In this document: positions 8,974 to 57,800 of the stretch, piece after piece
How positions within the stretch are numbered: the first letter of the stretch is position 1
Layout of the letters: each line of letters opens with the position of its first letter
DNA from: an uncultured bacterium
GTDB lineage: Bacteria; Planctomycetota; UBA8108; UBA1146
Direction: 5' to 3'
Assembly: GCA_938075155.1 (NCBI GenBank)
Contig: CALJGL010000038.1
Location: 36,767 to 100,766 of the forward strand
Length of the DNA stretch: 64,000 bases
Program-made: the position numbers and the translations under genes
The notes under the pieces: generated by a model
Told to the model about the DNA's origin: nothing
The model's database searches: none
What the model saw: only the letters and a program-made list of their open reading frames with translations

Positions 8974-10272
8974 TTAAATATCGTCACCATCTCCGTCGCA
9001 TCCCATTCCGTCTCCGTTTGTCGGATCAATGCCGAGATCCGGGAAGGGAGCAGGAGGAGGACTTCCGCCAGCGAACTGGTATGTGAAGACGTATACTGCG
9101 TCTCCGATTCCAATACCTGGTGAACCAGGACCAGCACTATCGTCGACGTCGCAAGCATCCAAGCATGGACCACTGCTACCACCGACGGGAGCTGACTGGA
9201 AAAGGTATGCAAGAATAGCGATACCATCTGCCAGGTCTACAAGCGAATCTCTGTTGCAGTCACCACGTACAAACGGGTTGAAATCGACAAGCTCGATGGA
9301 TCCGTCTACGAGGTTTGGTGTTTCACTGTAAGCTCCATCAACAATTCTGTTGGTAATCGGAGGGTTTCCAGCACTTGCGATAAAGGAAACAGGTGTGCTC
9401 AGAGGAGCAACATTAGATCCGAGATCTTGGCTGACAATGAATGAAAGTTGAAGAATCTCTTGGTCGTCTCCAACCGGGATTTCTTCAGCGAGCGAGAAAC
9501 TCATCACCATTCCGACGCCGACTGTTCCAGCCTCGGCAGTCTGGGAAACCTCAACGAAGTCAGCATTTTGTGCAACGCCTGTTGCCGTGGCCGCATCGAA
9601 AGTCAAAAGACTTTGGTCGAAAGAGGCAGCAATAGAAAGTCCATCGATGGGTCTCTCGGTGGTCACGAATACAGGTACGGAAGCAGATTGACCGACAACA
9701 CCAAAGCCAGAACCAATGGTCAAGAAGTTTGGACTCAGGACTTCGATAGTCGCATTCTGATGACTAGGCTGAACACTTTCTCCTGCGATTACCATGACGG
9801 TGGTCACTGGAGGATTTCCTGCAGTACAGAATTGTATCTCTGAAGAAGATCCCACTTCTCCAAGAGTTAAGTATTCGATATCGAGAAGTTCGAAATCGGT
9901 TGTTTCTCCCAAGGTTGCACACCCTGAGAAGCAGATCACAACGCCCTGAGTGACAGAGTCACTAGTAGTGTTGATCGTGTCAAAATCGGGAGCTGCCCCG
10001 TTCTTGACGAGTAGGGCGTCGGCGCCCATCGCTGTACCTAGAGGTGTGAGGTGGTTTTCATCATTACAAATACCAAGGCTCCAACCTTGAATACCAGACG
10101 TTTGTTGATTGTCTAGTTTCGCGGTTCGGACAACAGTTCCACCACCAAAGGCGGTTCCGTTCTCCAGTTTTACCGTGATATCTGGGTTTTGTGCATGAAC
10201 TGATACATTCAGTCCTGCAGAAAAAATCAGGAGAGCAATGAGTGAACTCCCGAACTTCTTGAGATTTAGCAT
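8974..10272 (-). CDS. Secreted scaffoldin-like protein: 2 cohesin-like modules + C-terminal dockerin with an atypical second loop
   Basis: Signal peptide MLNLKKFGSSLIALLIFSAGLNVSVHA; repeats GIQGWSLGICND and PIDGLSIAASFD; dockerin RGDCNRDSLVDLAD; RBS GGAAGG before ATG 10272. Confidence 0.8.
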   Translation of the reverse strand: MLNLKKFGSSLIALLIFSAGLNVSVHAQNPDITVKLENGTAFGGGTVVRTAKLDNQQTSGIQGWSLGICNDENHLTPLGTAMGADALLVKNGAAPDFDTINTTSDSVTQGVVICFSGCATLGETTDFELLDIEYLTLGEVGSSSEIQFCTAGNPPVTTVMVIAGESVQPSHQNATIEVLSPNFLTIGSGFGVVGQSASVPVFVTTERPIDGLSIAASFDQSLLTFDAATATGVAQNADFVEVSQTAEAGTVGVGMVMSFSLAEEIPVGDDQEILQLSFIVSQDLGSNVAPLSTPVSFIASAGNPPITNRIVDGAYSETPNLVDGSIELVDFNPFVRGDCNRDSLVDLADGIAILAYLFQSAPVGGSSGPCLDACDVDDSAGPGSPGIGIGDAVYVFTYQFAGGSPPPAPFPDLGIDPTNGDGMGCDGDGDDI

Positions 10273-10365
10273 CCCGCATTCCTTCCACGCCACCGAGTTA
10301 CATATTCGATGAGCTCGCTATAGAGTTACCTCGGTTACTAATCGAGGAGTTTGTTGATGAACTTC

Positions 10366-12216: not shown

Positions 12217-12399
12217 CTTCATCTCCTCTGCTTGCCTCTTTGGAGGCCCCCGCAAGAATATCTTCCCCCTCACGTCAGAATTTAGACGTGAGACTCTTCC
12301 CCACCGTGCTCGCTGCGGCGCAAGCTGAGATGGTATCTCCCCCTCAAGGGCGATTTACATAGTTTATTGACAAAGGTTTACAAGTCAAGCGCGATGGGA

Positions 12400-14448
12400 T
12401 TAACAACCAAGGTTGTCAATGAAGGAGGGATCTTCTCCCGGCTGAGGGAATGGTAAGGGAGGTGCGGCAGAACCACCGAATAGATAGAGCAAAGTGTATA
12501 TGGGGTCAGATATGTCCAAAGTACCGTCATCGTTGGCGTCTGCAGCATCCATGCACGTTGGAGTGCTTCCAGAAGAGTAGAGCCACATCGCGGTAAAGAT
12601 AGCGTCTGAGAGGTTGACCAGATTGTTTGAGTCCGAATCTCCGCGAAGGAAATCGGGACCGTCGCTGACGACCAATAGTTTGTAAAGAGTGTTAGTCCCG
12701 TACCCTGCCACGACAATTGTATTGCCGATGAGCTCGATGCCGGTCCAGGGAGTGCTGAGGTATTCGAGCGACTGGCCGATGGCCGCCATTGGCATGATGA
12801 AGTTCAAAGGAAATCCGAAGGACGTCAACTGACTCAGGCTTGTGGGTACGCCGCCATTATCGATGCCGACGAGCAAGGAACCATCTGCCAAAGTTGCTAT
12901 GCCCGTACTCATGATCAATCCTGAAGTTTGTGGGGGAGATATGGTTCCGAGAGGATTTCCTTCGAGTCCGTCTTCCGCTTCCATGCGCAAGATTTCAGAG
13001 TTCGAGCCTGATGGACTGCTGAATAGTAACCAATCGTTGGTTGAAGCATCAAAGGAGATGGACCTGATATTGTTGGACCCCGAAGGGAAAGAAGACAGAA
13101 CGGTACCTGTTAATGGATCGACGAAGGTCACCAAGCTGCTTCCCACTCTGCTGACCAGAAGAACGTCGAGCAATGAGTTGTATCCCACGCCGCGCAGATT
13201 CGTAAGCCCGGTATCGATGACTCTCTTTTGAACTAAGTCTGAACTAAAGACTCTGAGTTCACCTGAGAAACTATCGGTGACGTACAGGTCATCCATAGTC
13301 GTGTCGTAAGCAAGATCTTGTGGGAAGAAATTGGGAATCGAAAGGAACAGGGATAGTCCCCCCGGTGAGTTGTTCACGTTACACGACGAGGTGGACACGT
13401 TTGAGGCGAGGACTCCTTGAACCTGGTACAAGATTCCCGCTTCATTGGGAGCCGCATTATCACTCCAACTGTTTGCCGCACCGCTGATGGTGTCGATGAT
13501 GGCACCATTCCTTGTGATTCGAATCGTGCTGTAAATATTATTGATACCCGGTCCACAGTTTCTCCAGCTCAGGCTCACATTCCCTTCGCCGTCTGCGAGG
13601 CAGAGAAGGTCAGCAGGAGGAAGGATGGTACTTTGTGTGCTCTGAATCTCATAAATGTTGGATGAGGTGAGACCGTAAATCGAATCGGATCCCAAACCGT
13701 TGGCAATTCCGAGAAGTGTCTCCTCTTGTGGAATCGATTCGAGATTGACGTAGTGGCACAGAAGCTCACCCGTGGTGAGGTCTACGCTGCGCGTTTCAGC
13801 CACTGTGCTATCAAAAATGTCTCCGTAGGTGTAGTCGAGAATAGGATTTCCATTATCGAGGCGAATCTTGAGACCACTTCCAAATCGAACCACGTCGCCC
13901 GGTAGAGGTAAGGTGGAAAGAATGTCTCCACTCACGGGGTCGATTTCTATTGCGGAGTTTTCTTGGCGATTCAGGGACCAAAGTCTGCCATTGAGTGGGT
14001 TGATGGTCAGTCCTGAAGGAGTTCCTGAGAAGTTTAGTGATATAGGGGCACCTAGTGGATTACCGAGTGGATCCATTTGGACCAGCTCGAGTCCGGTAGA
14101 GTTCAGAATCCAGAATGAATCCGTGGAGGCTGAATAAGTGATCCCTGCGCACTGCGGTTGGAACAAAGGTGCCTGAGCGGCACCGACGGGGTGGTCGATC
14201 ATATTGGTGAGTGCCAGAGTACCAGAGGTATCGTAGACACAAATTTTGCCGCTGGTCGCATCGATGCTCCAGACCGTGGCATCTGCTGGTCTGACCGTCA
14301 TATCGACGGTATTGGGATTACTTCCACAAGAACTGGTCTGTTGCAGAAGAGCTCCATTTTGAGCGGACAAATTGTCGGTAAAAATTGGAAAGGTCAGCAA
14401 GATCGCCAGGCCCCAAAGCATGAGCTTAGAGCCGGTAATGATTCGCAT
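12400..14448 (-). CDS. Secreted protein: beta-propeller + FN3/Ig-like + second beta-propeller + C-terminal dockerin
   Basis: Signal peptide; blade-like repeats (AGITYSASTDSFWILN, SGLTINPLNGRLWSLN, QDLAYDTTMDDLYVTD, RGVGYNSLLDVLLVS); central VSLSW...IRITRNG...SWSD module; dockerin RGDSDSNNLVNLSD...DANDDGTLDISD. Confidence 0.75.
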   Translation of the reverse strand: MRIITGSKLMLWGLAILLTFPIFTDNLSAQNGALLQQTSSCGSNPNTVDMTVRPADATVWSIDATSGKICVYDTSGTLALTNMIDHPVGAAQAPLFQPQCAGITYSASTDSFWILNSTGLELVQMDPLGNPLGAPISLNFSGTPSGLTINPLNGRLWSLNRQENSAIEIDPVSGDILSTLPLPGDVVRFGSGLKIRLDNGNPILDYTYGDIFDSTVAETRSVDLTTGELLCHYVNLESIPQEETLLGIANGLGSDSIYGLTSSNIYEIQSTQSTILPPADLLCLADGEGNVSLSWRNCGPGINNIYSTIRITRNGAIIDTISGAANSWSDNAAPNEAGILYQVQGVLASNVSTSSCNVNNSPGGLSLFLSIPNFFPQDLAYDTTMDDLYVTDSFSGELRVFSSDLVQKRVIDTGLTNLRGVGYNSLLDVLLVSRVGSSLVTFVDPLTGTVLSSFPSGSNNIRSISFDASTNDWLLFSSPSGSNSEILRMEAEDGLEGNPLGTISPPQTSGLIMSTGIATLADGSLLVGIDNGGVPTSLSQLTSFGFPLNFIMPMAAIGQSLEYLSTPWTGIELIGNTIVVAGYGTNTLYKLLVVSDGPDFLRGDSDSNNLVNLSDAIFTAMWLYSSGSTPTCMDAADANDDGTLDISDPIYTLLYLFGGSAAPPLPFPQPGEDPSFIDNLGC

Positions 14449-14663
14449 TTTGGATTCGTAGTCACTGAATGGCGACGAAGGCATTCCAATTCCTCTCCAG
14501 AAGAATCTGTATGAGTAGCATGAGTCTCATGCAAGGATCCGCCTCAACAAGCAGGATTCATGGAATCAAGACTTGTCGAAGACGTACATCGAGGGGGGAT
14601 AGGCGGGCTGGAAGAGTGATCCCGATGCGTGATTTCGCAATAGGAACATTCAGACCATACATC

Positions 14664-19387: not shown

Positions 19388-19900
19388 ATGTCGCCTGCTG
19401 AAGATGTGTCACCTTCCGAAGGTCTTTCTCACACTAATGAGGATGGCGAATCGAGAATGGTCGACGTCGGAGATAAGAAAATCTCTGATCGCCGTGCTGT
19501 TGCGGAGGGGCGCATCCTGATGAATCCGTCGACACTGGAACTGATCAGTGAAGGTGAAGTCGAAAAGGGAGACGTTCTCGCGGTTGCTAGAATCGCTGCA
19601 ATCCAAGGTGCTAAAGAAACTTCTCGTCTTATTCCGATGTGTCATCCACTGCCTCTCGACCATGTCGAGGTGGAGATTGAAAACGGAGTCGAGGGAGATC
19701 GCGCTTGGGTCATGATCAGAGTTCAGTCCAGAGTTCAGGCAAGAACCGGAGTTGAAATGGAAGCGATGGTCGCCGTGAGTGCGGGTTTGTTGACGATCTA
19801 CGACATGTGTAAAGCTGTGGATCGGCATATGGAGCTGGATCAGATCCGGTTACTAGAGAAATCAGGTGGGCGTTCGGGTCACTGGACACGTGCAGACTGA
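19388..19900 (+). CDS. moaC: Cyclic pyranopterin monophosphate synthase (Moco biosynthesis)
   Basis: LSHTNEDGESRMVDVGDK, KGDVLAVARIAAIQGAK, LIPMCHPL, TGVEMEA, IYDMCKAVD, LLEKSGGRSG. Confidence 0.97.
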   Translation: MSPAEDVSPSEGLSHTNEDGESRMVDVGDKKISDRRAVAEGRILMNPSTLELISEGEVEKGDVLAVARIAAIQGAKETSRLIPMCHPLPLDHVEVEIENGVEGDRAWVMIRVQSRVQARTGVEMEAMVAVSAGLLTIYDMCKAVDRHMELDQIRLLEKSGGRSGHWTRAD

Positions 19901-31598: not shown

Positions 31599-32687
31599 AT
31601 GAGCAATACCTTCGGCGAGTACCTAAGAATCACCACCTGGGGAGAATCCCACGGCCCGGGCATCGGGGTCGTGATCGATGGCCTTCCTGCAGGAATCCCC
31701 GTGGACGAGGCAATGTTGGTGAAGGAGCTGGAAAGAAGACGCCCAGGGGCGGTTCTGACCTCTCCCAGAAAAGAGCCTGATCAGCCCCGAATATTATCTG
31801 GAGTTCATGAAGGTCGCTCTCTGGGAACACCCCTTTCGATATGGATAGAGTCCGTCGATGCTCGATCTGAAGATTACGACGAGTTGGGGAAGATCTATCG
31901 TCCGGGGCATGCTGATTACACCACTGAAGCGAGGTACGGACATCGGGATCCCAGAGGAGGTGGACGGGCCAGTGCTCGTGAAACAGCTGCTCGTGTAGCC
32001 GCGGGTGCTGTGGCAAAAGCTCTTCTTCGAATCGAACATGGTATTGATATCGTCGGCTGGGTCTCAGAGGTGTCAGGAATCGCTAGCGAGGTTGATCCTC
32101 AGGAAGTTTCCACAGAGGCGGTCGATAAGTCGATCGTTCGTTGCCCCGATGCTTCTTCTTCTGAACTTTTCGTGAATCGAATCTCGCAAGCGAAAGATGA
32201 AGGAGAAAGTTTAGGTGGCTGGGTCGCGGCGGTAGCTCGAAATGTTCCTGCAGGTTGGGGGGATCCTGTTTTTGGGAAACTCAAAGCTCTGTTGGGCCAA
32301 GCGATGCTTTCCATTCCCGCAACAGTGGCAATAGAGATGGGTGACGGAATCGCTGCTACACGTCGTATGGGGAGTGAAAATAACGATTCATTCACAGCGA
32401 CGACTTCAGGTGAGGTGAAAACCCGTACTAATCGTAGTGGCGGTATTCAAGGCGGAATATCCAACGGTGAGCCGATTTGGTTTAGGGTTGGTTTTAAGCC
32501 GACTTCTACGATTCAAAAAACGCAAGACTCGGTCAATCAATCGAGGCAAGAGGTTCAATTCTCAGGGACTGGAAGGCACGACCCGTGCGTTCTTCCACGA
32601 GCGGTTGCAGTTGTTGAATCAATGTTGGCATTGGTTCTTGCTGATCGCATGTTAGCTCGAAATGCCACTCCTCCTTCGAAAGAGTGA
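31599..32687 (+). CDS. aroC: Chorismate synthase
   Basis: MSNTFG...TTWGESHG, YRPGHADYT, GGGRASARETAARVAAG, GGIQGGISNG, GRHDPCV. Start at ATG 31599 (ORF track starts at 31515). Confidence 0.98.
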   Translation: MSNTFGEYLRITTWGESHGPGIGVVIDGLPAGIPVDEAMLVKELERRRPGAVLTSPRKEPDQPRILSGVHEGRSLGTPLSIWIESVDARSEDYDELGKIYRPGHADYTTEARYGHRDPRGGGRASARETAARVAAGAVAKALLRIEHGIDIVGWVSEVSGIASEVDPQEVSTEAVDKSIVRCPDASSSELFVNRISQAKDEGESLGGWVAAVARNVPAGWGDPVFGKLKALLGQAMLSIPATVAIEMGDGIAATRRMGSENNDSFTATTSGEVKTRTNRSGGIQGGISNGEPIWFRVGFKPTSTIQKTQDSVNQSRQEVQFSGTGRHDPCVLPRAVAVVESMLALVLADRMLARNATPPSKE

Positions 32688-32691
32688 TGAG

Positions 32692-33246
32692 ATGTCTTGG
32701 ATAACGGAATTGAATCCTAACGAAGATGATTCAGGAATATTAGAGAGAGTCTATTCTGCAGCGAGCGGCAGGGTGGGGTCGGTAGCACAAATCCTCAAGG
32801 TCATGTCTTTGCGTCCTGATTTGTTGGAACTATTCATGCGATTCTACGTCAGTTTAATGAAGGAAGGTGCCGGCCTTTCCTGTGCTGAGAAAGAGTGGGT
32901 CGCAGTATTGACGAGCAAGGTCAATGATTGTCATTACTGAATCCACTCTCATTTGGCGGACCTAGAATCCCTTGAAGGGGGAGAGGTTCTCGCTGAAGCG
33001 ATCCGGTCGGATTGCGAAGAAGCCCTGAATCATCGCCAACGAGCGATTCAAAAATACGCCATTCGACTCGCCAGCTTGGAGAGAGAAGTTTCAAAAGAAG
33101 AAATGGACGAACTTCGTAGTGCAGAATTGTCCGAAGTGGAAATTCTCGAACTGATCCATGTCGTCGGCTTTTTCTCTCACATCAATAGAGTTGCGGAAGC
33201 TACAGGAGTGGATTTGGAGACTTGGATGCCCCCAAAGCAGGAATAG
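32692..33246 (+). CDS. AhpD/carboxymuconolactone decarboxylase-like peroxidase, predicted selenoprotein (CxxU, in-frame TGA 32938-32940)
   Basis: ORFs 32662-32940 and 32953-33246 are in the same frame with only the TGA between them; the joined 184-aa product reads ...KEWVAVLTSKVNDCHY*IHSHLADL...VGFFSHINRVAEATGV, the CxxC position of AhpD-like proteins. Confidence 0.8.
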
Positions 33247-33379
33247 CGCATTTGGGCAGAATCGCTGACATTCATGCCGTCATTATCATGTATACTCAAA
33301 CTTACATAGTTAAATGCTTCCCAGTGCAATAAGGGAGCGAGAATGGTCGTCAGATTCTTGAACTTTGAGAGATATTCTA

Positions 33380-34987
33380 ATGGCAGATCTGAAGTCAGAT
33401 GACATTGATAAACTCCTAAAAAGGATTTCATTACGGCTTCTTCTCAAGGCCGCCGTGGATTCTTTGGAGTTGGCCATTAGCCTAGGTCTGTTCAGTTTGG
33501 CCATATTGATCCTCGTTGATCAAATGTTCGGTGAAGTGACATCGAGTTTGATCAAGGTGATCTCTTTTGTCGGGTTATCTCTTCTGGTCATTATTGTGAA
33601 TGTTCTCCGAGTGAAAAGTTCTGCTATCAGTGCCGCTGTGACGGTGGAGCGAGAAACGGATATCCCACAAACGATTTCCACTGCGCTCTATGCGCGGCAA
33701 GGGGGCATGAGAGAAGAGGTTTCTCGGGCAGTATTGGAAGATGCTTCTCAGATTACCCAGGGTGTGACTCCTAAGGATGTTATTCCTCTAGGGAAACCAA
33801 AGCTTGGACTCCCGACTCTTGTTTCCGTTTCATTCTTAGTCATCTCTTTGGTTATTCCTCAGATGGATTTATTGGGGAAGGGTGAAGCTTTCGAAAATCA
33901 ACGCCAGGAAAGTGCGAGGGTCGTGCGCAAAGAAAAAGCGCTGACACGAAGGCTTGAAAAAATTTCAGACATTTCCAAGAAGCATACTGTTTCCAAAGAA
34001 GTGAAGAAGGCGATTGAGAAAGTGATCCAGGAGCGTCGTGAGAGTATTAAACGTTCCATCAGTGAGCCGGAGAAAAAGCTGAAAGCCGCTGATCTAAGAA
34101 AAGAACTGAAGATTCAACGGTCTGAGATTGCGAAACAGAGAGCGCAGGCGACCCCGGAGATGAAGGGGATCTACGATAAAATGCGTGAAGACGCTATGGA
34201 ATCTCTGGGTCAGAAATCTCCTGAAATGAAACAGTTGAAGAATGCGCTAGAGGAAGGCGATTTAGGCCAAGCCGCTACTGCACTCGACGCCCTATTGAGT
34301 AAATTTGGAGACCCTTCTATGGATATGAAGGATCTCCAGAAGCAGCTAGAAGACCTTTTGGGAAAGCAGTCCCTGAAGTCGTTGGGCAAAAATTTATCAG
34401 ACCCCGATTCTAAAATTGATCCAGAGTCACTGGAGAAACTTTCACGATGGATGAAAGACTTGGCTCTGTTGGATCAAGTTCAGAATCAGATTGAATTTAC
34501 CGAAGCGGAACTCGCAGAGCTCGCGAAAGAATGGCCAAAGAGCCCACCACCAGATATTTGTCCTGACTGTCTTGCTGGGAAATGTAATGCCAAATCAGGT
34601 GGAACATGAAGTGGCGGAAAAAGTGGACGAGGTCTCGTCCATCTCAAATCGCAGAAATCTTCAGCGGCGAGTGGGGCAGGTGAAAAAGGCTTTGGTCAGC
34701 CCACTGGTAAAGGTATGGGTGGAGGCAACCCAGGAATCGGGGGAGATTCTGGCCAGCTTGTTGATAGTAAGCTGCCGGGTGGAGGCAGTGGGGGGCAAAT
34801 CGTTTCTACGATGCTTGTTCGGGGGGAGGCTCCCTCTGGTGAAGCCAAGAAAGAATTTTCTAAAGCTGTAGAGGCGAGTGGAAGACTCTCCGAATCTGAA
34901 ATCGAACAGCAGCGCTTACCTTCGGCATTGCAAAAAGTGGCCAAGGATTACTTCGATCGCCTGCAGGGAAATCCCTCTGATAATTGA
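33380..34987 (+). CDS. Membrane-anchored coiled-coil protein of the type found in vWA/MoxR-associated clusters, with in-frame TGA (34607-34609), predicted selenoprotein
   Basis: Three N-terminal hydrophobic segments, long coiled coil, CPDCLAGKCNAKSGGT*SGGKSGRG; frame stays open through the Gly-rich linker to a C-terminal ...LPSALQKVAKDYFDRL; SECIS-like hairpin directly after the TGA. Confidence 0.7.
34610..34652 (+). promoter_or_regulatory. Putative bacterial SECIS element
   Basis: Stem UGGACGA (34624-30) / UCGUCCA (34635-41), loop GGUC (34631-34) starting 21 nt after the UGA; possible lower stem GCGG/UCGC. Confidence 0.65.
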
Positions 34988-35002
34988 GGAGTATATCGCA
35001 TC

Positions 35003-35965
35003 ATGAGGCGTGCTTCGTTCTGTCATACCGGTGGATTTCTCTTCAGCGGGTTGCTGGGATTTCTTCTTTTATCTTCATGTCAGAGCGGAACTTTCAGTTC
35101 TGCACTTCCTGTTATTCCCAATGTTGAAGTGATTGGTGAGCCGGGCAGGGGTGTCGGAAAGCTGTTCCAGCCCAGAGCTATTGTCACTCGAAACGACGGT
35201 GGTTGTATCATCATCGATCGCAGTGGGCGGGCTCAGGTTTTCGATGACGATCATCAAGTGATAAGGGTATGGACACTTCCTGAATGGTCCTCGGGCCATC
35301 CGATTGATCTCTGTATGACCGCTGAGGGAACTCTTCTAGTTGCCGATACCCATTACATGAGAGTGATTGAGTTCACTGAGGACGGTGAAGAAATTCGCCG
35401 ATTTGGTCGAGAAGCGGGACTGGAGTTGGTGCGTGGAATAGATGTGGGACCTGACGGCACTATTTATGTCGCTTCATACGGAGAGCATGATCGAATTTTT
35501 AGGTTTACTCGTGAAGGAGCGCTCATCGATTTCTGGGGACAGAGGGGTGATGGCTTCGCTGAATTCCTCAGACCGGAGGGTTTGGCTGTGGCTCCTGATG
35601 GGACACTGTGGGTGATCGATTGTGGCCACCAGAGATTGTTACGATTTACTCCGGATGGAACCTGGATACAGACGATTGAAAGTGCCGGACTCCCCAGCGG
35701 GCAATTGAGTACACCATTTGATGTAGATGTTCTGGATGACGGTACACTGTTTGTCGTCGACAGGAGTGGCTGTAGATTGAATCTATTCTCTTCCACAGGG
35801 GAATCGCTTCATAGTTTTGGAGGCATCGGGCGTCAGCCTGGAAGGCTTCATGAACCACGGGGTGTTGCGGTTACATTGTCGGGCGATCTGCTGAAGATAT
35901 ATATTGCTGATACTGGGAATCATCGGATCAGTCACAGTGTATTGGATTGGAAGGAGATGAGATGA
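35003..35965 (+). CDS. NHL-repeat beta-propeller protein, probable lipoprotein
   Basis: Lipobox-like LLSSC; repeats FQPRAIV, RPEGLAVAPDGTLWVID, TPFDVDV, EPRGVAV...IYIADTGNHRI. Confidence 0.85.
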   Translation: MRRASFCHTGGFLFSGLLGFLLLSSCQSGTFSSALPVIPNVEVIGEPGRGVGKLFQPRAIVTRNDGGCIIIDRSGRAQVFDDDHQVIRVWTLPEWSSGHPIDLCMTAEGTLLVADTHYMRVIEFTEDGEEIRRFGREAGLELVRGIDVGPDGTIYVASYGEHDRIFRFTREGALIDFWGQRGDGFAEFLRPEGLAVAPDGTLWVIDCGHQRLLRFTPDGTWIQTIESAGLPSGQLSTPFDVDVLDDGTLFVVDRSGCRLNLFSSTGESLHSFGGIGRQPGRLHEPRGVAVTLSGDLLKIYIADTGNHRISHSVLDWKEMR

Positions 35966-38793
35966 TGTCATTCGGATTTGAGCAACCTCTACTCCTTCTT
36001 CTTTTAATTCCAGTAACGATTTTTGTCGTCTACCTTTGGAAAACTAGCAGAGCTCGAACTCCAGTTGCCGTGAATCAAGCATCTCTCATTTTGCGATTAC
36101 TCTGCACGTGGATTTTGATTTTCGGGCTCGCAGGCGTCTCTCAGTACAAGGAAGGTAAAGGCCTTTCAATAGTTGTTCTCAGAGACCTTTCTCAATCAGT
36201 TCCAAGGGTTGAGAGCGATTCTGCTCTGTCTCAAATATCAAATCGTATCGGCGACCTGAAGGCTCCTGATGAAGTGGGTCTCATTTCTTTTGGAAGAGAC
36301 TCGCGCTTAGAGCAAGGTATGTCCCTGAATCTCGGTAACGGAAAGGCGACTTCTCTGGATAACAGTTCCACAGATATCGCCTCTGCGCTGAGATATTCAG
36401 CGAGTTTTCTAAATTCGAATTCTGGAGGAGGTCTCAAGCGCATCATTTTGATCAGTGATGGAAATACCACTGAGGGAGATGCGCTGAGAGAGGCTAGGAA
36501 TCTGGCTGTTTCCGGGATACCCATCGATGTGTGGCCGATTTCCTATGACAGATTAAATGAAATATTAGTCGAGTCCGTCTCTGCCCCAGAAATGGTCGCA
36601 CCTGGACAAGTTTTTGGAGTCGATGCTGTTATTGATTCTTCTTCCAACTCAAAGGCTCAAGTGATTCTAAGGGAATCAGGTACAGTCATTGCTGAAAGAG
36701 AAGTTGATCTTGGTGTTGGAAAGAACAGAGTTTCATTTTCTTTAGATCCTTCCGAAAAAAGTAACAGGAAATTTACAGTTTCGGTCATACCTGCAACGGG
36801 CGCTGATTCGACCTTCGTGAATAATAGCGGCGCAACGTTAGTTCGTATGAGAAAGCCCTCAAGAGTAATCGTCGTTTCAGAGAACCAAGATTCAAGAATC
36901 GTCGACCATCTGGCAGGATCTAAAATACTTGTAGATCAAATGTCGCCTTCGCAACTCTCAAGCAGTGCTTTTGATTACTCAGAATACTCTGCAGTTGTGC
37001 TGGATAATGTCTCTTCATTTTTGTTCGAGAAACAGCAGACCCAACTGCTGGAGAGATTAGTGCACGATAACGGTTTGGGTTTACTGATGGTGGGGGGGCC
37101 AAATTCGTTTGGTCCGGGCGGGTGGGGTGGTACCCCTGTCGAGACCGCCTTGCCCGTCAGTATGGATATTCGTCAGCGAAAAGTTGTTCCCAACGGTGCA
37201 TTGGTCGTGATTCTTCACACTTGTGAATTTAAACAAGGAAATCTATGGGCGCGTCAGATCACCAAGAGTTCTCTCCGTGGATTAACTGCGAAGGATCACT
37301 TTGGAGTTTTGATGTATAAAGCTGGGGTCGATGGGTGGGGGATTCCCCTGAGTCCGGTCGCTGATATTCCAAATTTGAACGCTGTAATATCCAGATTGAG
37401 CCCCGAGGATATGCTTCAATTCGAACCCTCGATGTCGATGGCTTTTACTGCGTTGACCGGATCTGAATCACCCTCCGCATTCTCTAAGCATGTCGTGATC
37501 ATTTCAGATGGGGATCCGACTCCTCCTAGTAATGAGTTGTTGACGGGGTTCGCCAATAACTCCATCAAGATTTCGACAATTTGTATTCAACCGCATTCTG
37601 GTGAGTTTCCAGAATTGACTCTTAGGAAGATCTCCGATAGTACTGGAGGTCGTTTCTACCGAATGGACGATCCGAGTCAGCTTCCTAGAATCTTCTTTAG
37701 GGAAGCGCTTAGGGTTCGGAAGAACCTGATTCTAGAGAAACGTTTCCAACCCGTCCTGAGGGAATCCTCGGAGATTGTCGGTGGGTTGAATGAGACAGAT
37801 ATCCCGCCCCTCGATGGCATTGTTCTCACAACATTGAAACCTTTGGCTAAAGCAATACTGGTGAACGATGAGGACGACCCACTTCTCTCGACTCGACGGC
37901 ACGGCATTGGAGTGACTGCTGCATTTTCTTCAGATTCCGGAGATCGTTGGTCGGGGGATTGGGTGAGTTGGGAAGGCAATCGAACCTTTTGGTCTCAACT
38001 GCTGCGTTCGATTTCTAAAATAGAAGAAAATAAATATTTACAAGCGACAACTAGAGTCGATGGCCGAGGCGGAGTACTGATCATCGATGCCATCGATGCA
38101 GAGGGTCGCTTTGTGGATGGCCTTCAGTTTGACGGATCTGTATTGAATCCTGAATTGACCTCCAGGGATCTTGAAATTAAACAAGAGGGGCCTGGGAGAT
38201 ATATCGGGCACTTTCCAGTGAGGGAGCGTGGGGATTACCTTGTTCGCGTAGAAGCTACGAATAAGGAAGGCGAAGTGGAAGGTCTCTCAAGATATTTCAC
38301 AGTGGGTTATCCCGCAGAGTTTCGCTCTTTGAAATCGAATGAAGAATTCCTCGGAAAAATCGCGGATGTCTCGGGGGGTAGAGTGATCGACGATGAGTCC
38401 GATTTATTGGACAAGTCTGGTCCCAATACTAATAGCCAGTCTCTTCTGTGGCCCCAGTTGACAATGTTGGCTCTTTGTCTTTTCTTCTTTGATGCTGCGA
38501 TTCGCAGAATTCAGCTGGAACCGTTTTCCCGTTCAAAGAAGCAGAAAGCAAATGCTGCTGAAATGAGCGAAGAGGAGACCGCCACCGTCGCTGCTTCTCC
38601 CGGGAGGCGATTTGGAAGGTCAGCACGGTCTGGGGCGGGAGATCAAATTCCTGATCCCGACAGTTCAGCCAAAAAAACTGGGGAACTTGAAAATGAGGAG
38701 AGCAAGGACCTGAAGGCTCTACTCCGTGTAAGACGTAAGAATCGCCGACAATCCTCCTCAGGGGATTCTGAGAATCCGGACAACCTCGGTTGA
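35962..38793 (+). CDS. Membrane protein with two vWA domains and a central glutamine-amidotransferase-like domain
   Basis: N-terminal BatA-like TM (FEQPLLLLLLIP), MIDAS DLSQS and IILISDGN; GLLMVGGPNSFGPGGW..TPVETALPV; second vWA HVVIISDG; C-terminal TM. Confidence 0.8.
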   Translation: MMSFGFEQPLLLLLLIPVTIFVVYLWKTSRARTPVAVNQASLILRLLCTWILIFGLAGVSQYKEGKGLSIVVLRDLSQSVPRVESDSALSQISNRIGDLKAPDEVGLISFGRDSRLEQGMSLNLGNGKATSLDNSSTDIASALRYSASFLNSNSGGGLKRIILISDGNTTEGDALREARNLAVSGIPIDVWPISYDRLNEILVESVSAPEMVAPGQVFGVDAVIDSSSNSKAQVILRESGTVIAEREVDLGVGKNRVSFSLDPSEKSNRKFTVSVIPATGADSTFVNNSGATLVRMRKPSRVIVVSENQDSRIVDHLAGSKILVDQMSPSQLSSSAFDYSEYSAVVLDNVSSFLFEKQQTQLLERLVHDNGLGLLMVGGPNSFGPGGWGGTPVETALPVSMDIRQRKVVPNGALVVILHTCEFKQGNLWARQITKSSLRGLTAKDHFGVLMYKAGVDGWGIPLSPVADIPNLNAVISRLSPEDMLQFEPSMSMAFTALTGSESPSAFSKHVVIISDGDPTPPSNELLTGFANNSIKISTICIQPHSGEFPELTLRKISDSTGGRFYRMDDPSQLPRIFFREALRVRKNLILEKRFQPVLRESSEIVGGLNETDIPPLDGIVLTTLKPLAKAILVNDEDDPLLSTRRHGIGVTAAFSSDSGDRWSGDWVSWEGNRTFWSQLLRSISKIEENKYLQATTRVDGRGGVLIIDAIDAEGRFVDGLQFDGSVLNPELTSRDLEIKQEGPGRYIGHFPVRERGDYLVRVEATNKEGEVEGLSRYFTVGYPAEFRSLKSNEEFLGKIADVSGGRVIDDESDLLDKSGPNTNSQSLLWPQLTMLALCLFFFDAAIRRIQLEPFSRSKKQKANAAEMSEEETATVAASPGRRFGRSARSGAGDQIPDPDSSAKKTGELENEESKDLKALLRVRRKNRRQSSSGDSENPDNLG

Positions 38794-50998: not shown

Positions 50999-52629
50999 GG
51001 TTTGGCTCTGAGGATCCAAGCCTCGAATAGTTGAGAACCTGAGTTTGGCTTTGCTAATGATTCAGAAAATAATTGGCAGACCTCTGATCGTGATATTCGA
51101 CCTTCCATCAGGCCGTTATAAATTCCGTCGCCCAACAGATATCCGATGAGATGGGCTGAACCAGATATGATTTCGGCATTAGTTTCTGATGGGAGAAAGT
51201 CCATCGCTGAAGGAACTTTCTCAGACGAGAGTAGTTTGAGGAAGCGTCGAGTCGCAAGAAGTGACTCTCGGGTTTCATCATGAAATGGGTGAGAATATCC
51301 TTCTTCAAGATCCTCTAGGATTCGATCGATTTCTTTTAGTCCTAAAGGCCTTCTGTTGTGGTCGACGATTTTTGTTCCCAAATATCCAAGGCATTCTCGA
51401 ATCGTTGTTTCGTAGAAGTTTTCAATAGGGCTCTTGGGGCTAGAAGTGTCTTTGCACAGAACGAAGTTGATGTGGTGACTGGCTTCTTCTGCAGCATGTC
51501 GCATGGAGAGGTTGCCTAAGAAGATGATTCTTGGTCTTGGAAGGTAGCATGATTCTTCTCGTTCGTATTGTTCCTGAATACGATTGATCTCGGCTTCGGT
51601 TAATTTTCGAGTTCCTGTCAAGTCATCGAGGAGACCTAGGTTTCTGCTGGTATACACGCTGAAGTCTTGGAAACCCTCAGGTGCTATTTCAAGGAATTCA
51701 CAAAGCGTTTCAATGATCAGCCAGATTTGGTCATTCATTACCGATGATGAGATAGTCGGAGGTTGTTCGAGTCCTAAAGATTCTTCAAGTTCGAGTTCAT
51801 TTGAATACCAGTTCAGTGCCGATTGAACTTTGACCAGTGGAGTCGTTCCTAGGAAACAAAAGTTTCCGTCCTCCAGTCGAACAAGAGATACAGTCTGTTC
51901 TAGTTCTTGTTGCGCGAGTTCCCAATAAATCTCATCGACATTCTGAAAAAGAATAGTCTGTTGGACTGCTTGATGTCCAAGAGATGCTAAGACGTTGCTG
52001 ACCTCAGATGGAAGATGGTCTGGAGCCATGTGCAGGTCGCCAAATGAAACTATGAGGATAGCATTGGGATGTTCTTTGAGAATCTCTACAAGGCGCATCG
52101 CAGCAATGCGATCTCTAGCAGCAAAAGAATCTCCAACAATTTTTTCATGAGAGTTGAGTGCGACTATGGGTATTGACCGATCTTTGAAGTACTGCAATTG
52201 CATTCCAAAGTTTCTCCAAGGAAAACCCCATTTGCTCTTCCAGTCGGTTTCTTTGAGTAACGCGTTGTCATCTATTTCATCTTCTAACCAACGCTGAAGA
52301 TGAGGTTGGTCATCGATGTGGAATGCTTCGGTGCAAAAAACGAGTTCTTTGTTTTTAGTCAACAGGCGATTAGCGAGTCGTAGAGGGGTTTTTTGAGATT
52401 CCCTCAGGGTGTGATAATCACCAATGAATATGATTCGGGATTCGAGGGCGGCTTGGACGAGTTCTGTGAACTCAGCGGGTTCAAAAGGTTGGTGAGTGCT
52501 TTTTTGATAGACGGATTCTATATCTTTGATAGAACCGCTATTCCAAGAAATTTCTTGTCTGGAGTTCTCCGCTAGTTCCTTCTGAATGCGTAGTAATCGA
52601 GTTCGTGTTGATTCATTGGAGGAATTCAA
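50989..52629 (-). CDS. ChaN/Tiki-superfamily-like N-terminal domain fused to an unknown C-terminal domain
   Basis: IIFIGDYHT, CTEAFH..DQPHLQRWL, W...WGFPW, ALN, RDRIAA, SFGDLH resemble ChaN-type proteins; no signal peptide seen. Confidence 0.55.
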   Translation of the reverse strand: MNSSNESTRTRLLRIQKELAENSRQEISWNSGSIKDIESVYQKSTHQPFEPAEFTELVQAALESRIIFIGDYHTLRESQKTPLRLANRLLTKNKELVFCTEAFHIDDQPHLQRWLEDEIDDNALLKETDWKSKWGFPWRNFGMQLQYFKDRSIPIVALNSHEKIVGDSFAARDRIAAMRLVEILKEHPNAILIVSFGDLHMAPDHLPSEVSNVLASLGHQAVQQTILFQNVDEIYWELAQQELEQTVSLVRLEDGNFCFLGTTPLVKVQSALNWYSNELELEESLGLEQPPTISSSVMNDQIWLIIETLCEFLEIAPEGFQDFSVYTSRNLGLLDDLTGTRKLTEAEINRIQEQYEREESCYLPRPRIIFLGNLSMRHAAEEASHHINFVLCKDTSSPKSPIENFYETTIRECLGYLGTKIVDHNRRPLGLKEIDRILEDLEEGYSHPFHDETRESLLATRRFLKLLSSEKVPSAMDFLPSETNAEIISGSAHLIGYLLGDGIYNGLMEGRISRSEVCQLFSESLAKPNSGSQLFEAWILRAKPQA

Positions 52630-53252
52630 AGATCTATGCCTTTCCTCGGGATATCTCCAGGCTCATTAAGATTTCTGAATGGAGAACTTTCAACCGCCTC
52701 TGGGAAATCCTGAGGCCATGTGAGTGTTTGGAATGGTGCGCGTCGAACCCAGGCGAGTAGAGCTAAATCTCCATCCTGCGGAGTTGAGAAATCCAATGCA
52801 GTGGTATCCCAGACAGCTGCTAGTGGTTGCGGACGGTCATCGGCCTCGACAATAACGGATGTACCCGGCGTATAAGAGGAACAGATTTTTCTTATCATAG
52901 ATGCGGTCAATTCCGGGAGATCGACTGCGACAATGAATACAGGGGCTTGAACAGTTTCGATGATATTTTCGAGAGCCTCGTGAAGAGAAGAACATTCAGG
53001 TGGATCTTCGATGATAGCATGCCACTTTAAATGTGGGATTTGGTCCAGAGCTGAAGAGGTTTTTACAGAAACGCAGGTCCGATCGAAGAGCGGTGATACC
53101 TTGGAGTGGATTCGCTCGATGAGAAGCTGGCCTTCGTATTCCAGAAAGGCCTTCGGTCCACCCATTCTGCGACCGGCTCCTCCTGCAAGAACCACGCAAT
53201 CTGAAACTTCCTGAATCGGATTGTGATTCACCTCTTCAAATGGTGGATTCAT
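52626..53252 (-). CDS. mobA: Molybdenum cofactor guanylyltransferase-like NTP transferase
   Basis: VVLAGGAGRRMGGPKAFL, FIVAVDLP, QPLAAVW, FRNLNEPGD. Confidence 0.85.
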   Translation of the reverse strand: MNPPFEEVNHNPIQEVSDCVVLAGGAGRRMGGPKAFLEYEGQLLIERIHSKVSPLFDRTCVSVKTSSALDQIPHLKWHAIIEDPPECSSLHEALENIIETVQAPVFIVAVDLPELTASMIRKICSSYTPGTSVIVEADDRPQPLAAVWDTTALDFSTPQDGDLALLAWVRRAPFQTLTWPQDFPEAVESSPFRNLNEPGDIPRKGIDL

Positions 53253-53330: not shown

Positions 53331-54089
53331 CTACCTTTTGGACCAACGTTTGATTTGGCGAAGACTTGTGCGGAGATCTTTAGGAAGGGGAGATTCGATC
53401 GTCATCATTTCGCCGGTGGTAGGGTGGGAGATCGTCAACTGAAAGGCGTGTAATCCAAGCCTAGAGAGTAGTGGGCGCTCCTGCTTTCCTCTTCCGGGGC
53501 TGTAAGATCGTTTATAATCTGAAAGAAGAACAGGTTTCCCTGATCCGTACAAAGGGTCACAACTACAAGGAGAACCTGCTTGGCTCATCGTCAGCCTGAC
53601 TTGATGAGTTCTCCCTGTGAGTGGTCGTACTTCGACCCATGAATGCTGATCGTAGGATTCAAGTAATGAGTAGCTGGATTGACATTCCTTGCCCTGCTTT
53701 CGAATTCGCATACTTCCAAGACGGCTCGGGTTTTCCTCGACATGGAAAGTGAGTTCAGCTTCTGCGGGCTCAGGGAATCCTTCGACAAGGGCGAGGTATA
53801 CTTTTGAGGTTGTTCGGTCCATGAACTGTTTTCGAAGTGAAGACTGCGCTTGCCCATTTCGAGCAAATAAAATCACTCCCGTAGTTTCTTTATCAAGTCG
53901 ATGGACGACATGAGGTTTGGGGGCATCTGGGTCTTTTTTCTTCCACTCATCCCAGAGCAGGTCGATAAGACATTTTTTATCTTTATCCCAGCGTTCACTG
54001 ACAGTGCTAAATCCCGCAGGTTTAGACACGGCAACGAAATCGTCATCTGAGAAAAGTGTTTCTATGCGGGGGAGGCGACCTGGTTTCAA
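53331..54089 (-). CDS. RluA family RNA pseudouridine synthase
   Basis: AVSKPAG, VVHRLDKETTGVILFA, KVYLALV, TGRTHQVR, DPLYG, LGLHA. Confidence 0.93.
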   Translation of the reverse strand: MKPGRLPRIETLFSDDDFVAVSKPAGFSTVSERWDKDKKCLIDLLWDEWKKKDPDAPKPHVVHRLDKETTGVILFARNGQAQSSLRKQFMDRTTSKVYLALVEGFPEPAEAELTFHVEENPSRLGSMRIRKQGKECQSSYSLLESYDQHSWVEVRPLTGRTHQVRLTMSQAGSPCSCDPLYGSGKPVLLSDYKRSYSPGRGKQERPLLSRLGLHAFQLTISHPTTGEMMTIESPLPKDLRTSLRQIKRWSKR

Positions 54090-54877
54090 GAAGAGATTTC
54101 TTTCTTTGGTAGTCTTTGGGCTGCAATCTCAAGTTGCTGAATGCCAGCGAGGGCTTCTTCTCGACCTTCGTCTTGCCTATCTAACTGCAGGGAAAATGCG
54201 CTCATGACTTCGAGGAAGCGGTCATAGGAGGAAGCGTCACCACTGCGCCATTTTGCGAACTCGAGCCAGCCTGTCGCAATATTGACAGAAAAACTAGACT
54301 CGGGGCCTGCCAATTCTGGAGTGGCGTTGTCTTTTGCATCTTCCAACGCGGTCTCTAGTGCTCCTTGAAAAGATTCACATGAGTTGTGCCAATTTCCGAG
54401 TCCAGCCTGATGAACACCAAGGGCCCACCAAGCCATACTCAATGCCACTGAACCTTTTTCGAGTTCCTCTCTCCACTTGAGGCAATCGTTGGCGCACCGA
54501 ATACCTTCTTCATGATGTCTGGGTTCTCGGGTTTCGTCATCGTCAACCCAGCAAGGAGCTAAATCCGCTGCGAGGTTATAAGAGAGAATGTTTGCTCCCT
54601 CAAGACGGAGTCGAGATTGTTCCGGATCTTGCTCTGTTTGGGATTGTTGGAAAAACTCATCGATGGCTGCTCGTGAAGTCGTGACGACGTCATCGAGATT
54701 CCGAGTTATGTTCTGTCCCCTTGAAATTCGCTGACTCGACATGAGGAAGAGCGCTCGTCTCTCGATCGATTCCTCTCGATCATGAATGTAGGAGACTAAG
54801 CCTTCGGCTCCTGAAGCAGTAAAGATGTCTTGTAGATCGGGCCAACGATCTTCAAATGGATTTTGTTGTATGTTCAT
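54086..54877 (-). CDS. Hypothetical helical protein
   Basis: 263-aa ORF with 4-nt overlaps to both neighbours; mostly predicted helical, contains SYNLAADLAPCW; no family recognised. Confidence 0.7.
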   Translation of the reverse strand: MNIQQNPFEDRWPDLQDIFTASGAEGLVSYIHDREESIERRALFLMSSQRISRGQNITRNLDDVVTTSRAAIDEFFQQSQTEQDPEQSRLRLEGANILSYNLAADLAPCWVDDDETREPRHHEEGIRCANDCLKWREELEKGSVALSMAWWALGVHQAGLGNWHNSCESFQGALETALEDAKDNATPELAGPESSFSVNIATGWLEFAKWRSGDASSYDRFLEVMSAFSLQLDRQDEGREEALAGIQQLEIAAQRLPKKEISS

Positions 54878-57800
54878 GGCAACTCCTTGAACTCAATTTC
54901 GTCAAACCAAACAGTTCCTTCAAGACCTTGTACGAAACATGCCAGATAAGTTGTCCTACTTTGGCCGGGTGACCATTCAAATTTCACTCGACGCCAGTCG
55001 GAATCTGTCCGCAGTGGTTTAGAACGACCTGTCCAGGACCCTAGTCTTCCAGTGAAGAATCCCAGATGAGCTTCTCCTCTAAAACCTTCTGAGCGCATGA
55101 TCGCACTGATCTCGTATCTCTTTCCAGGAGTTACGACAATTCTCTGAATGATTCCTCCAGCACCAGGTTCACGAACTTGAGCTCTCAGTGCGCAGGTTCC
55201 GGTTCCAATAACTTCTGTTTCTGGGCGAAACTGGATAGATCCAACGGGATCAACTTCTCCGTTGATCCAGCCATCAAGATATTCAGGGGACTCAAAATCA
55301 CCATTGAGTAAGGGAGTGTGATTTTCGACTCGAACCACGTCATCAAGAAGAGGTTCACCTGGGGGGCCTTCGTCGAGAACCCCCATCGGAACTGGAGTAC
55401 CATCAGGAGTCATTAACTCGATTCGAAATCCACGTGTTCCTCGAATTTGGGTGGCTGCGATTTCGATGACGTTTTCACCTTTTAGGAGAGTGACAGGGAA
55501 TGGCTTTTTTTGGTTGAGCATGAGTTCGTCATGCATGGGTTGAAACATTTGAGCGCTCGCATCGACAAAACCAACAGGGCTTCCGTTAACCCTGATTTGT
55601 AGTTTGACATCTGTTGCCACTGCCAAGCGGGCTTCCATATCTTTATTGACAGCGATTCTTCTGAAGAGGATCCATTGCCGGGTTTTCGTTGCAGGTTCCA
55701 GATCTGAGGCGAGGTCTGTAAACGGAGTGGGCCAAACAGTACGTTTCCATGAAGAGTTGGTCTCGTCTGTTTTTCCTTCGACAGGACCCCGAACCCACCA
55801 ACCATTGATAATGGTTCCATCGATTCGATTATAGTTGAGTTTCTTGGGGTGTCTTTTGATGAACTTCACTGACGATCCACCAAGGTCGATACGATCATCG
55901 AATACAGGCCAACCATTCGCTCTGAATATCCATGCCACATTCTGTCCGAGGGCCAGTGAATATAGAGCTGCAATTCGTTCTATACTGGAGAGGCCATGCA
56001 GTAACAGTGTTACTTCTGAGGCTCTTCTCTCCGTGAACATTTTGTGATGAACTCCAAGGCCATGGAGGAATCGCATGGCGGCAAAGACGGAAGCATTGGG
56101 CTGCCAAGGCTGCATTCGGTCACTAGAGCGGTTGAGTAACCAATCCATGGTGTGCTGGAAAGCAGACATATTCAGGAGGCGATAGCCGAGTTCTCCATAA
56201 ATACCTTCGTCCACTCCGCTATCGGCGAGCAGCATATAAGGATCATGACCAAAACCGATGTTATGTCCGAGTTCATGAGTGTATGGACCCGGCAAGATGT
56301 CTCCGATACCTGTGTATTCATGAAGAACTGCAGCATCGAGAACGATAACTCCACCTCCACCGAGTCCTCCAACGCCGGGAGGCATAAAGATGTCGAAATC
56401 CATAAACAGTCTTTGTACTCCGTCAGCACATCCGAGATGAACTCTACAACCCTCAAGGCTTCTTGAGACTTCAGGCATCATGTCTGTCATGCGCTGTCGG
56501 AAAACACTAGGACCAGAGGCACTGGATCCAGCGTCATTGACGGTGATGGGAGGTTCTGCAATGGCGATTCCCTGAATAGCCGAATCTCCGTAAGGCACAT
56601 CGACCTGAATCCTTATTTTTGAGAGATCGACCCGGTCAAGGGTTCTGGGTTCCTGCCAGCGCATCGATCCCAGTTCGCGTTCGATGAGCACTGTGCCTCT
56701 GCTATCCACTGCCGCCAGTGAACCCACTCCACTGGGGACTGAATCCAGTACTCTTCCATTCGCATCGCTCAGGGAAAGTCTCATTTGAAGAGTGCCGTCT
56801 TTGCGTTCGTAATGAAGGATTGATTTCCATGGACCTCGTGGTTCAAGGTCAATTTTTCCAGCATTCGCTACAGAAACCCTATAGGGAAGAAACCTTGCAC
56901 TTTTTCCGCCGGGTAACTGACTTCTCACTTCTAGACGATAGGTTCCAGGAAACACCCATGCTCTTCTGGCGTCCTTTGTCTCGAGTGAGAAACGTTCTCG
57001 GAAACCATCGATCGATACGATTTCGATTCGTCCATCACTCGCTCCGCCGAATGCGCTGGCAGAGGAATACTCGAGGCGACCCATCACCGATTTGCTGAAC
57101 CTGACCGGGACAACTTGGCGGTCGCCCGCTGTTCTTTGACGAAGGAGTACGGGTTCTCCATCCGAGGTTCTTCCTAGGACGCACAGTTCTACAGCTATGC
57201 CTGAAAGCAATAGCCTGAATCGCCCAGAAGGGACCTCTTTCTGAGTTTCGAGTCGTGCTCTGGAGCCTACTTCCCTGGCGACTCTTTCAGTTGTGAAGGC
57301 CTGGGCAACACTTTCAGGCGTGATCCAGACCTTCTCGACAGAGAGGGGTTTGTCACTCTCGTCCATGACCGAAATCTCGGTATCTTTTTGGGGCGCGAGG
57401 ATTAAGGAATCTGCATCTTCAGCAAGAGTGCTCTGTAGTAGGAATACTCTGGGTAATCTGAAGACTGCTGTCGTCGCATCTGGATCGATTTCATCTTCAA
57501 TCTCTCCGTGTGCAACGACAGTCCATGCACCCGGAACGACCATTGAGCTCCAGAAGCCATTCGCATTGGTTTTTCCTTCAACGACGGCTAGGCTTTCCTT
57601 GTTCAGTAGTATCAGTTGGGCACCTGCGACTGGATTCCGTCCTTCATCGAGCACTTGAACTTCGATAGGACGCAATTTGAATTGTTCCCGTATCCATTCT
57701 TCACGCTCTCGCTCTTTTGCAACGGCAAGAGCTTCTCGAAGGTTTTCTGTACGATGGCCAGAAGCAATTACTCTCTCAATAGATTGTAAAATCTCACCTT

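Follow-up and report, generated by a model that had tools for sequence, protein, structure and literature searches.

A probable planctomycete selenoprotein gene encoding a membrane-anchored helical protein with a cysteine/selenocysteine cluster

Does the in-frame TGA at positions 34607-34609 of this planctomycete DNA (64 kb, called the window below) end a gene, or is it read as selenocysteine (Sec)? An open reading frame (ORF) begins with ATG at 33380 (TTG 33365 is an alternative start upstream), meets the TGA directly after ...CPDCLAGKCNAKSGGT, and continues in the same frame to a second TGA at 34985-34987. If the first TGA is read through, the product has 535 residues and contains C394, C397, C402 and U410. 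The stop, its stop-free continuation and these four residues had been claimed in a preliminary description of the locus, and all of them are in the sequence. Based on the comparison with related loci, we consider it very probable that 33380-34987 is a genuine selenoprotein gene, and the decoding of the UGA as Sec into one chain of 535 residues is well supported by the aligned sequences. The complete explanation, comprising a single selenoprotein gene of this length, Sec decoding, its family and a presumed function of the cluster around the Sec, is in our view a likely one.

To compare the locus with its relatives, we fetched loci from the genomes of 18 species representatives (almost all of them unclassified or carrying the label Planctomycetota), from 11 metagenome contigs and from the contigs of eight individual relatives. 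The query of the tblastn locus search was a six-sequence alignment from which the distant member had been removed. We observed that the internal stop is a TGA in the window, in the 18 genomes, in the 11 metagenome contigs and in seven distant contigs, and that it is never TAA or TAG. When searching with the read-through protein, we found 12 close homologues at 25-93% identity, and those that are complete all stop at one and the same residue, with ...GGT or ...CPDCLAGT. Most loci close the long frame with a TGA as genuine terminator; L023 and L028 use TAG instead, and L044 uses TAA. All 19 close loci (the window and L005-L022) have TGA there, L008 as a tandem TGA-TGA, and TAG or TAA is found only in distant members; this preference may simply follow from the high usage of TGA in the window, where it is the ordinary stop of 30 of the 46 genes. 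As TGA terminates so many genes, it is not reassigned as a codon, and we rejected codon reassignment. The locus L020 (QNYK01000107.1) is a typical member with two UGAs and with synteny of the Planctomycetota type, yet its record says 'Bacillota bacterium'; the contig is probably a mis-binned or mis-labelled metagenome-assembled genome.

The explanation closest to current annotation is that the locus consists of two separate genes, namely a membrane protein of 409-414 residues that ends at TGA 34607 and a small protein that starts from ATG 34715 or from another start. Gene callers annotate the locus in this way everywhere, and the databases hold the C-terminal ORFs (84-121 residues) as separate proteins. 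Furthermore, Sec insertion is usually inefficient, so that a truncated product is probably made too. However, the frame after the UGA is open for 118-156 codons in all 24 loci compared, and the other two frames hold stops in nearly all of them. The downstream domain lies in the frame of the upstream ORF in each of these 24 loci, although the length of the linker between them varies. An ATG after the last internal UGA is missing in 8 of the 24 loci and is found at non-conserved positions elsewhere. A separate translation of the C-terminal part, which the preliminary description had named as a possible refutation with ATG 34715 as the start, is thus excluded as a general mechanism.

The sequence beyond the UGA also shows the coding-type conservation that had been expected of a read-through gene. 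Differences between loci fall mostly on the third codon position, with counts of 17:17:69 for the three positions between L006 and L008 and of 23:17:59 between L012 and L021. At its end, the frame encodes a conserved C-terminus, ...GEAPxGEA...QR.P..L..V..DYFDRL, and this end domain is homologous to that of uninterrupted relatives (500-650 residues), with whose C-terminus it aligns (alignment A5). In these relatives, the same N-terminus, cluster, linker and C-terminus are combined in one chain, which argues against two genes, as does the fact that the internal stop is always a TGA followed by a hairpin of the type of a selenocysteine insertion sequence (SECIS). We consider two separate genes very unlikely.

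The hairpin was described before as having a GGUC loop 21 nt after the UGA; it is present and agrees with the bacterial SECIS model, whose constraints we took from PMC13188914 (Fig. 2). Its stem of 8 bp consists of seven Watson-Crick pairs and a closing G-U. When folded alone, the 71-nt stretch is statistically ordinary (z = -1.03), and the case thus depends on the comparison with related sequences. In the hairpin after the last UGA, the tetraloop is GGUC in the clade of the window and in distant members and AGUU in the sister clade. Among 17 distinct sequences, 95.6% of the cells are paired, compared to at most 53% in slid controls. Changes on both sides of the stem occur at three pairs (10 cells), and none of 500 shuffles reached that count. 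These compensatory changes, with which the hairpin has been kept as the preliminary description anticipated, are A-U to G-C, G-C to A-U and A-U to C-G, the last of which comes with a difference of Leu to Arg in L022. For the last UGA, nearly all loci agree with the constraints of the model (spacing 18-27 nt, -6.8 to -14.2 kcal/mol); after the terminal TGAs of the same genes and after those of other window genes, such a hairpin is mostly absent. The combination of UGA, open downstream frame and hairpin exceeds chance and recurs in every homologous locus that we fetched.

The known element that is most similar is that of Escherichia coli fdhF (NC_000913), where UGA140 is followed by ...GCAGGUCUGC. 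In both genes, an in-frame UGA precedes a stem that lies within the coding sequence and is capped by GGUC. The hexamer AGGUCU at the apex is identical, so that a match previously pointed out holds. The distance from the UGA to the loop is 18 nt in fdhF compared to 21 nt in the window gene. Further differences are that the two proteins are unrelated, that the stem in the window is a simple 8-bp helix that lacks the bulged U of fdhF, that sister clades use an AGUU loop, and that members with several UGAs nest the second UGA in the loop of the first hairpin.

Which residues replace each other around the UGA? In the clade of the window, the motif is CPDCLAG-K-C-x5-GGT-U. In the sister clade (L012-L022, L036-L042), it is CPDCLAG-T-U-x4-6-GG(T/A)-U, and Cys402 of the window thus aligns with a second UGA; L025 and L039 have G-T-C at this third site. 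Other arrangements are CPNC...GGT-U-x10-GGT-U in L023, GGT-U-AGC...CPVC in L028, and several extra Cys together with two UGAs in L024. In L044 (4258-4320), the motif EP-U-PT-U-x16-GGL-U has UxxU in place of CPDC, followed by a third UGA. The cluster of L026 (2807-2872) contains four UGAs and no Cys (GGT-U-x5-U-x8-U-x5-U). The UGAs in these two loci are 2-16 codons apart. Overall, Cys and Sec alternate at three of the four ligand positions (sites 1, 2 and 3). The motif of three Cys and one Sec that had been proposed for the protein is present in the window, but the family is better described as having four chalcogen ligand sites, with up to four Sec, in place of the DnaJ-type CxxCxGxG knuckle of its relatives. 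Likewise, the proposed alternation of Cys and TGA was found at the first three sites but not at residue 410, where all Sec-type members have TGA.

Evidence for the use of Sec comes from the gene directly upstream, which the preliminary description did not mention. This AhpD-like, peroxidase-related gene has its own in-frame TGA, is split by gene callers into two ORFs and, when read through, scores 117.9 bits on TIGR01926 (cutoff 81.8). Its true start is likely ATG 32692 (MSWITEL), just past the end of the chorismate synthase gene at 32687. Downstream of its UGA, the best hairpin has only -5.2 kcal/mol and is thus weak, at a distance of 33 nt. The AhpD-like CxxU proteins are a catalogued selenoprotein family (PMC13188914), and the adjoining Sec-type gene thus indicates that the organism uses Sec. 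A gene with the motif C-x-Y-U-x3-H and its own TGA is the upstream neighbour on the same strand in 22 of the 25 scanned loci, and also in L044. The encoded protein is small and soluble, with an AhpD fold and no signal peptide, and is not homologous to the protein of 535 residues; the adjacency suggests co-function or co-regulation.

A second alternative is that the long product is made without Sec, by read-through or local recoding in which the UGA is read by a suppressor tRNA or by one that is near-cognate (for Trp, Cys or Arg) and the hairpin is a mere stimulator. In its favour, no Sec machinery was located in the window and in the fetched flanks, site 4 is never Cys, and the context is Gly-rich. 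However, TGA is a working stop codon in this DNA, and the recoded positions alternate specifically with Cys. Furthermore, the tetraloop is of the SelB type (GGUC or xGUy), stands at the canonical distance and has an apex identical to that of fdhF, and the conserved AhpD-like neighbour is a member of a known selenoprotein family with the UGA at its CxxC site. Read-through without Sec thus has only a slim chance in our estimate. The remaining idea of a pseudogene, nonsense mutation or assembly error in this single genome, which might be prompted by a relative that looks frameshifted, is refuted by the comparative data and has a negligible chance, as independently assembled sequences from many projects share this TGA at 31-93% protein identity and the downstream frame is under coding-type constraint. 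That relative, P0002 (a metagenome contig of 1809 nt, 92% identical), diverges after residue 275 and ends at residue 295; it is the only broken copy that we saw, and the break is probably a frameshift or an assembly error.

Having found Sec decoding to be the best explanation of the UGA, we asked to which family the protein belongs. The read-through protein has no meaningful match in Pfam or NCBIfam. With the N-terminal alignment as query, an exhaustive profile search resulted in 2442 proteins at E <= 1e-3, of which 1283 reach E <= 1e-10, and we inspected the best 150 representatives. Among these, 36 end in G-[GS]-[TGL] (30 of them in GGT), and such GGT-type enders are presumably truncated Sec forms. 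Another 82 are full-length, with about 480-930 residues, and have the same N-terminus and the same C-terminal domain. Word-indexed protein searches with the C-terminal part or with the C-terminal profile returned no full-length Cys forms, only small orphan ORFs, and the database entries for the family are all truncated and named 'hypothetical protein'.

In the full-length relatives, the hinge between the helical region and the Gly-rich linker is often CxxCxGxG-CxxCxGxG or a richer Cys cluster (P0057, P0082-84, P0096, P0097, P0106, P0110, P0134, P0140, P0144, P0152, P0160). Judged by its position in the chain, the Sec cluster appears to occupy the place of this DnaJ-type hinge motif; the equivalence stays positional because the low-complexity hinge precludes a residue-level proof. 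In the Sec forms, the spacing C-x2-C-x4-[C/U] is that of CxxCxGxG-C in the central cysteine-rich domain of DnaJ (PF00684), whereas the distance to the fourth ligand is 5-16 residues and not two, and metal binding is putative here. Membership in PF00684 was rejected, as the window protein does not match and only one of 63 relatives does so weakly (E 1.1e-3). The resemblance thus points to a possible way of working and not to membership. Zinc-thiolate redox switches of the Hsp33 and RsrA type are functional analogues.

Further known families were compared. DUF4175 (PF13779) was rejected, with matches in three of the 63 relatives, the best at 17.9 bits (E 5e-4) compared to a cutoff of 27.3, and no match for the window protein. 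DUF4175 proteins and the accessory proteins of Bat or MoxR-DUF58-vWA operons are similar to our protein in being membrane-anchored, low-complexity and helical, and in being encoded beside vWA and MoxR genes; in the genome of the window, however, MoxR and DUF58 are not adjacent. A review of May 2026 (PMC13188914) lists 119 prokaryotic selenoprotein families in its Table 1, and no comparable family is among them. For the multi-Sec families of prokaryotes, that review puts the maximum at two or three Sec. Its Sec-containing families that are metal-binding or zinc-ribbon-like are the FmdB-family putative regulator (UxxU), a metal-binding protein (UxxU) and MbdU (CU, two Sec). These share with our family the replacement of Cys by Sec in short CxxC-type motifs outside the thioredoxin fold and the presence of several Sec per protein, and UxxU also occurs in L044. 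They differ in that there is no sequence relationship and no NCBIfam match, and in that the motif here forms the hinge of a large membrane-anchored helical protein with up to four Sec. GOS_A, a hypothetical selenoprotein of an unnamed family from the GOS (Global Ocean Sampling) metagenome, has a different sequence and was rejected, and a search for literature on selenoproteins in Planctomycetes found nothing relevant. We thus conclude that this is a large uncharacterised family of Planctomycetota that is new among selenoproteins, with an architecture unlike that of an enzyme, a cluster of the poly-Sec type and one site at which Sec is fixed. The preliminary description had proposed a new selenoprotein family, and the conserved UGA, the alternation, the SECIS-like hairpin and the comparison with known families bear this out.

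The features of the locus and of its neighbours are collected in the table.

Table 1. Positions of the proposed selenoprotein gene, its parts and its neighbours in the window
Feature	Position	Strand	Evidence
Probable whole coding sequence of the selenoprotein (535 codons, one of them for Sec)	33380..34987	+	True stop TGA 34985-34987; tblastn homologues span residues 1-534 across the TGA
In-frame TGA, read as Sec (U410; well supported)	34607..34609	+	All Sec-type loci examined have TGA, and none TAA/TAG, at the aligned position
Predicted transmembrane helical hairpin, residues 29-50 and 56-77, after a K/R-rich N-terminus predicted to be cytoplasmic	33464..33610	+	AlphaFold2 (AF2) helices H29-50 and H56-77; hydropathy, charge counts
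Third predicted transmembrane helix, residues 144-161, then conserved P..DLLG motif	33809..33862	+	AF2, hydropathy
Long helical, coiled-coil-like region, residues 167-382	33878..34525	+	AF2 mean pLDDT (predicted local distance difference test) 75.7; helices H167-201 to H348-382
Cys/Sec cluster C394-x2-C397-x4-C402-x7-U410, CPDCLAGKCNAKSGGT-U	34559..34609	+	In relatives, Cys and Sec replace each other at the first three sites
Gly-rich low-complexity linker after the Sec codon	34610..34786	+	Frame open in all loci, no conserved start codon
Conserved C-terminal domain (...VSTMLVRGEAPSGEAK...QRLPSALQKVAKDYFDRLQG...)	34787..34984	+	Common to full-length non-Sec relatives (alignment A5); third-position bias
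SECIS-like hairpin GUGGACGA-GGUC-UCGUCCAU	34623..34642	+	Tetraloop 34631-34634, 21 nt after the UGA; -10.6 kcal/mol
AhpD-like, peroxidase-related selenoprotein gene, TGA 32938-32940 (..NDCHY-U-IHSH)	32662..33246	+	TIGR01926; CMD and PA26 in Pfam
NHL-repeat beta-propeller gene, lipoprotein-type signal (..GFLLLSSCQSG)	35003..35965	+	Pfam NHL 2.4e-22; lipobox read from the sequence
Membrane protein gene, 948 residues, vWA and GATase1-like	35947..38793	+	Pfam VWA 4.7e-11, GATase1_like 4.3e-11; syntenic in relatives

What might such a protein look like? In the AF2 model, the N-terminal part is all helical and the cluster is disordered. P160, D163, L164 and G166 around the third predicted transmembrane helix are invariant (alignments A1 and A3), and a conserved motif, LLDQ..Q.EFTEAEL..L..EWP, ends the long helical region (alignment A3). 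The N-terminus has 6-9 Lys/Arg (+6 to +9) and the first loop has 0-1, which by the positive-inside rule would place the N-terminus in the cytoplasm. With three transmembrane helices, the coiled coil, the cluster and the C-terminal domain would therefore be outside the cytoplasm, and we regard the scaffold as probably facing the periplasm, at low to moderate confidence.

Synthesis and function may then be pictured as follows. SelB and Sec-tRNA would be recruited by the GGUC-tetraloop hairpin downstream of the UGA, and after the insertion of Sec, translation would run through the Gly-rich linker into the conserved C-terminal domain. From a cytoplasmic Lys/Arg-rich N-terminus, the product would lead through three transmembrane helices into long helices of about 215 residues in total, followed by the four-site cluster, the Gly-rich linker and the C-terminal domain. 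By analogy with the knuckles and switches named above, the four-site cluster may bind a metal or switch by selenol/thiol redox chemistry, a suggestion in which our confidence is moderate. The membrane-anchored scaffold might work with the NHL lipoprotein and the vWA/GATase1-like protein as an envelope module of the Bat/MoxR type, with a functional or regulatory coupling to the AhpD-like selenoprotein. Whenever translation stops at the UGA, a truncated form without the C-terminal domain would result, and the ratio of the two forms could depend on the selenium supply.

Taking this further, one might picture a poly-selenolate centre, with up to four Sec and a last one that is never Cys, in an extracytoplasmic scaffold of a Bat/MoxR-vWA module, acting as a selenium-gated or oxidant-sensing switch and not as a catalytic selenoenzyme. 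We put this forward tentatively, as a rather speculative possibility. Because the UGAs precede the C-terminal domain, selenium supply would choose between two products. If this is true, a truncated form with anchor and coiled coil would be opposed to a full-length form with the cluster and the C-terminal domain.

Several observations weigh against the interpretation of the locus as a selenoprotein gene with such a function. No selA, selB or selD was found by Pfam (most large ORFs of the window were scanned and others annotated by synteny), and ARAGORN found no tRNA-Sec (selC) in the 64-kb window and the 25 loci; likewise, sel genes were found neither in the window nor in the fetched flanks of the relatives. 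No Cys was found at residue 410, the fourth site, which is UGA in every Sec-type member, so that pairs of Sec and Cys forms exist only at the other cluster sites, and the equivalence with the Cys-rich relatives appears positional, without a residue-level alignment. Hairpins after the first UGA in members with several UGAs are less regular, with weak covariation (in two-UGA members, the first hairpin carries the second UGA within its loop and is 83.8% paired), and some UGAs of multi-UGA members, among them some in L026 and L044, have no hairpin that complies with the model. Rfam had no relevant match, neither in the whole window at the gathering threshold nor in 32800-35100 at permissive E-values, but this result is uninformative as bacterial SECIS elements are poorly covered. 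With regard to the function, Foldseek found no structural neighbour in the PDB (best E-value 0.48). The AF2 models of the cluster and of the C-terminal domain are of low confidence, the latter (mean pLDDT 54.6) being unusable, and our suggestions would be based on analogy and gene context only. Furthermore, the predicted periplasmic exposure fits awkwardly with a site of the zinc-thiolate type and with an AhpD-like neighbour that is apparently cytoplasmic.

The genes that follow bear on the presumed envelope module. The NHL gene starts only 15 nt past the stop of the selenoprotein gene, and the vWA/GATase1-like gene begins at 35947, before the NHL gene has ended, which suggests that the three genes form one operon. 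The NHL gene is syntenic in L001-L004, L024, L025, L030 and L044. In L030, the order is homologue, NHL, vWA/GATase1_like, MoxR, DUF58 and BatA/vWA. The link to vWA and MoxR clusters that had been suggested from the form of the protein is thus visible in the genes that follow in the window and in the MoxR-DUF58-BatA genes of L030. In L029, a ferritin/rubrerythrin-like gene (8326-8826) is upstream of a Cys-rich non-Sec relative, in place of the AhpD-like selenoprotein; it is another oxidative-stress or iron-related partner.

Elsewhere in the window, the molybdenum-cofactor genes MoaC, MobA-like NTP (nucleoside triphosphate) transferase and MoeA are scattered at 19388-19900, 52626-53252 and 58947-60212. 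These genes raise the possibility that another part of the genome encodes a molybdoenzyme, for example formate dehydrogenase, which in many cases is a selenoprotein too. The window also encodes a 1-Cys peroxiredoxin (5695-6354; AhpC-TSA and 1-cysPrx_C), which is an ordinary Cys protein. Large ORFs of 439, 635, 694, 263 and 476 residues at 8974-14484 (- strand), 54086-54877 and 60607-62037 have no match in Pfam or NCBIfam, and in an ORF of 1386 residues (54874-59034) only an N-terminal FHA domain was recognised.

Lastly, we consider what a selenoprotein gene at this locus would mean. As the databases hold only truncated 'hypothetical proteins' and orphan C-terminal ORFs, the annotation of this locus is wrong in many marine Planctomycetota genomes. 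When all ends of the form GGT or GGx are counted, about a third of the best 150 representatives have one, which hints at a cut at a Sec codon. To our knowledge, the known prokaryotic selenoproteins are almost all soluble redox enzymes with one Sec, whereas the protein described here would be a helical scaffold anchored in the membrane, whose knuckle-like cluster contains one to four Sec. Its natural variants, CxxC...C...U, CxxC...U...U, UxxU...U and U...U...U...U, are a ready series for questions on Sec versus Cys. UGAs that are 2-16 codons apart, with nested hairpins, offer a test case for how SelB handles consecutive recoding. The cluster would provide a first chemical handle on the long-obscure Bat/MoxR-vWA envelope modules and would tie these modules to an AhpD-like peroxidase-related selenoprotein.

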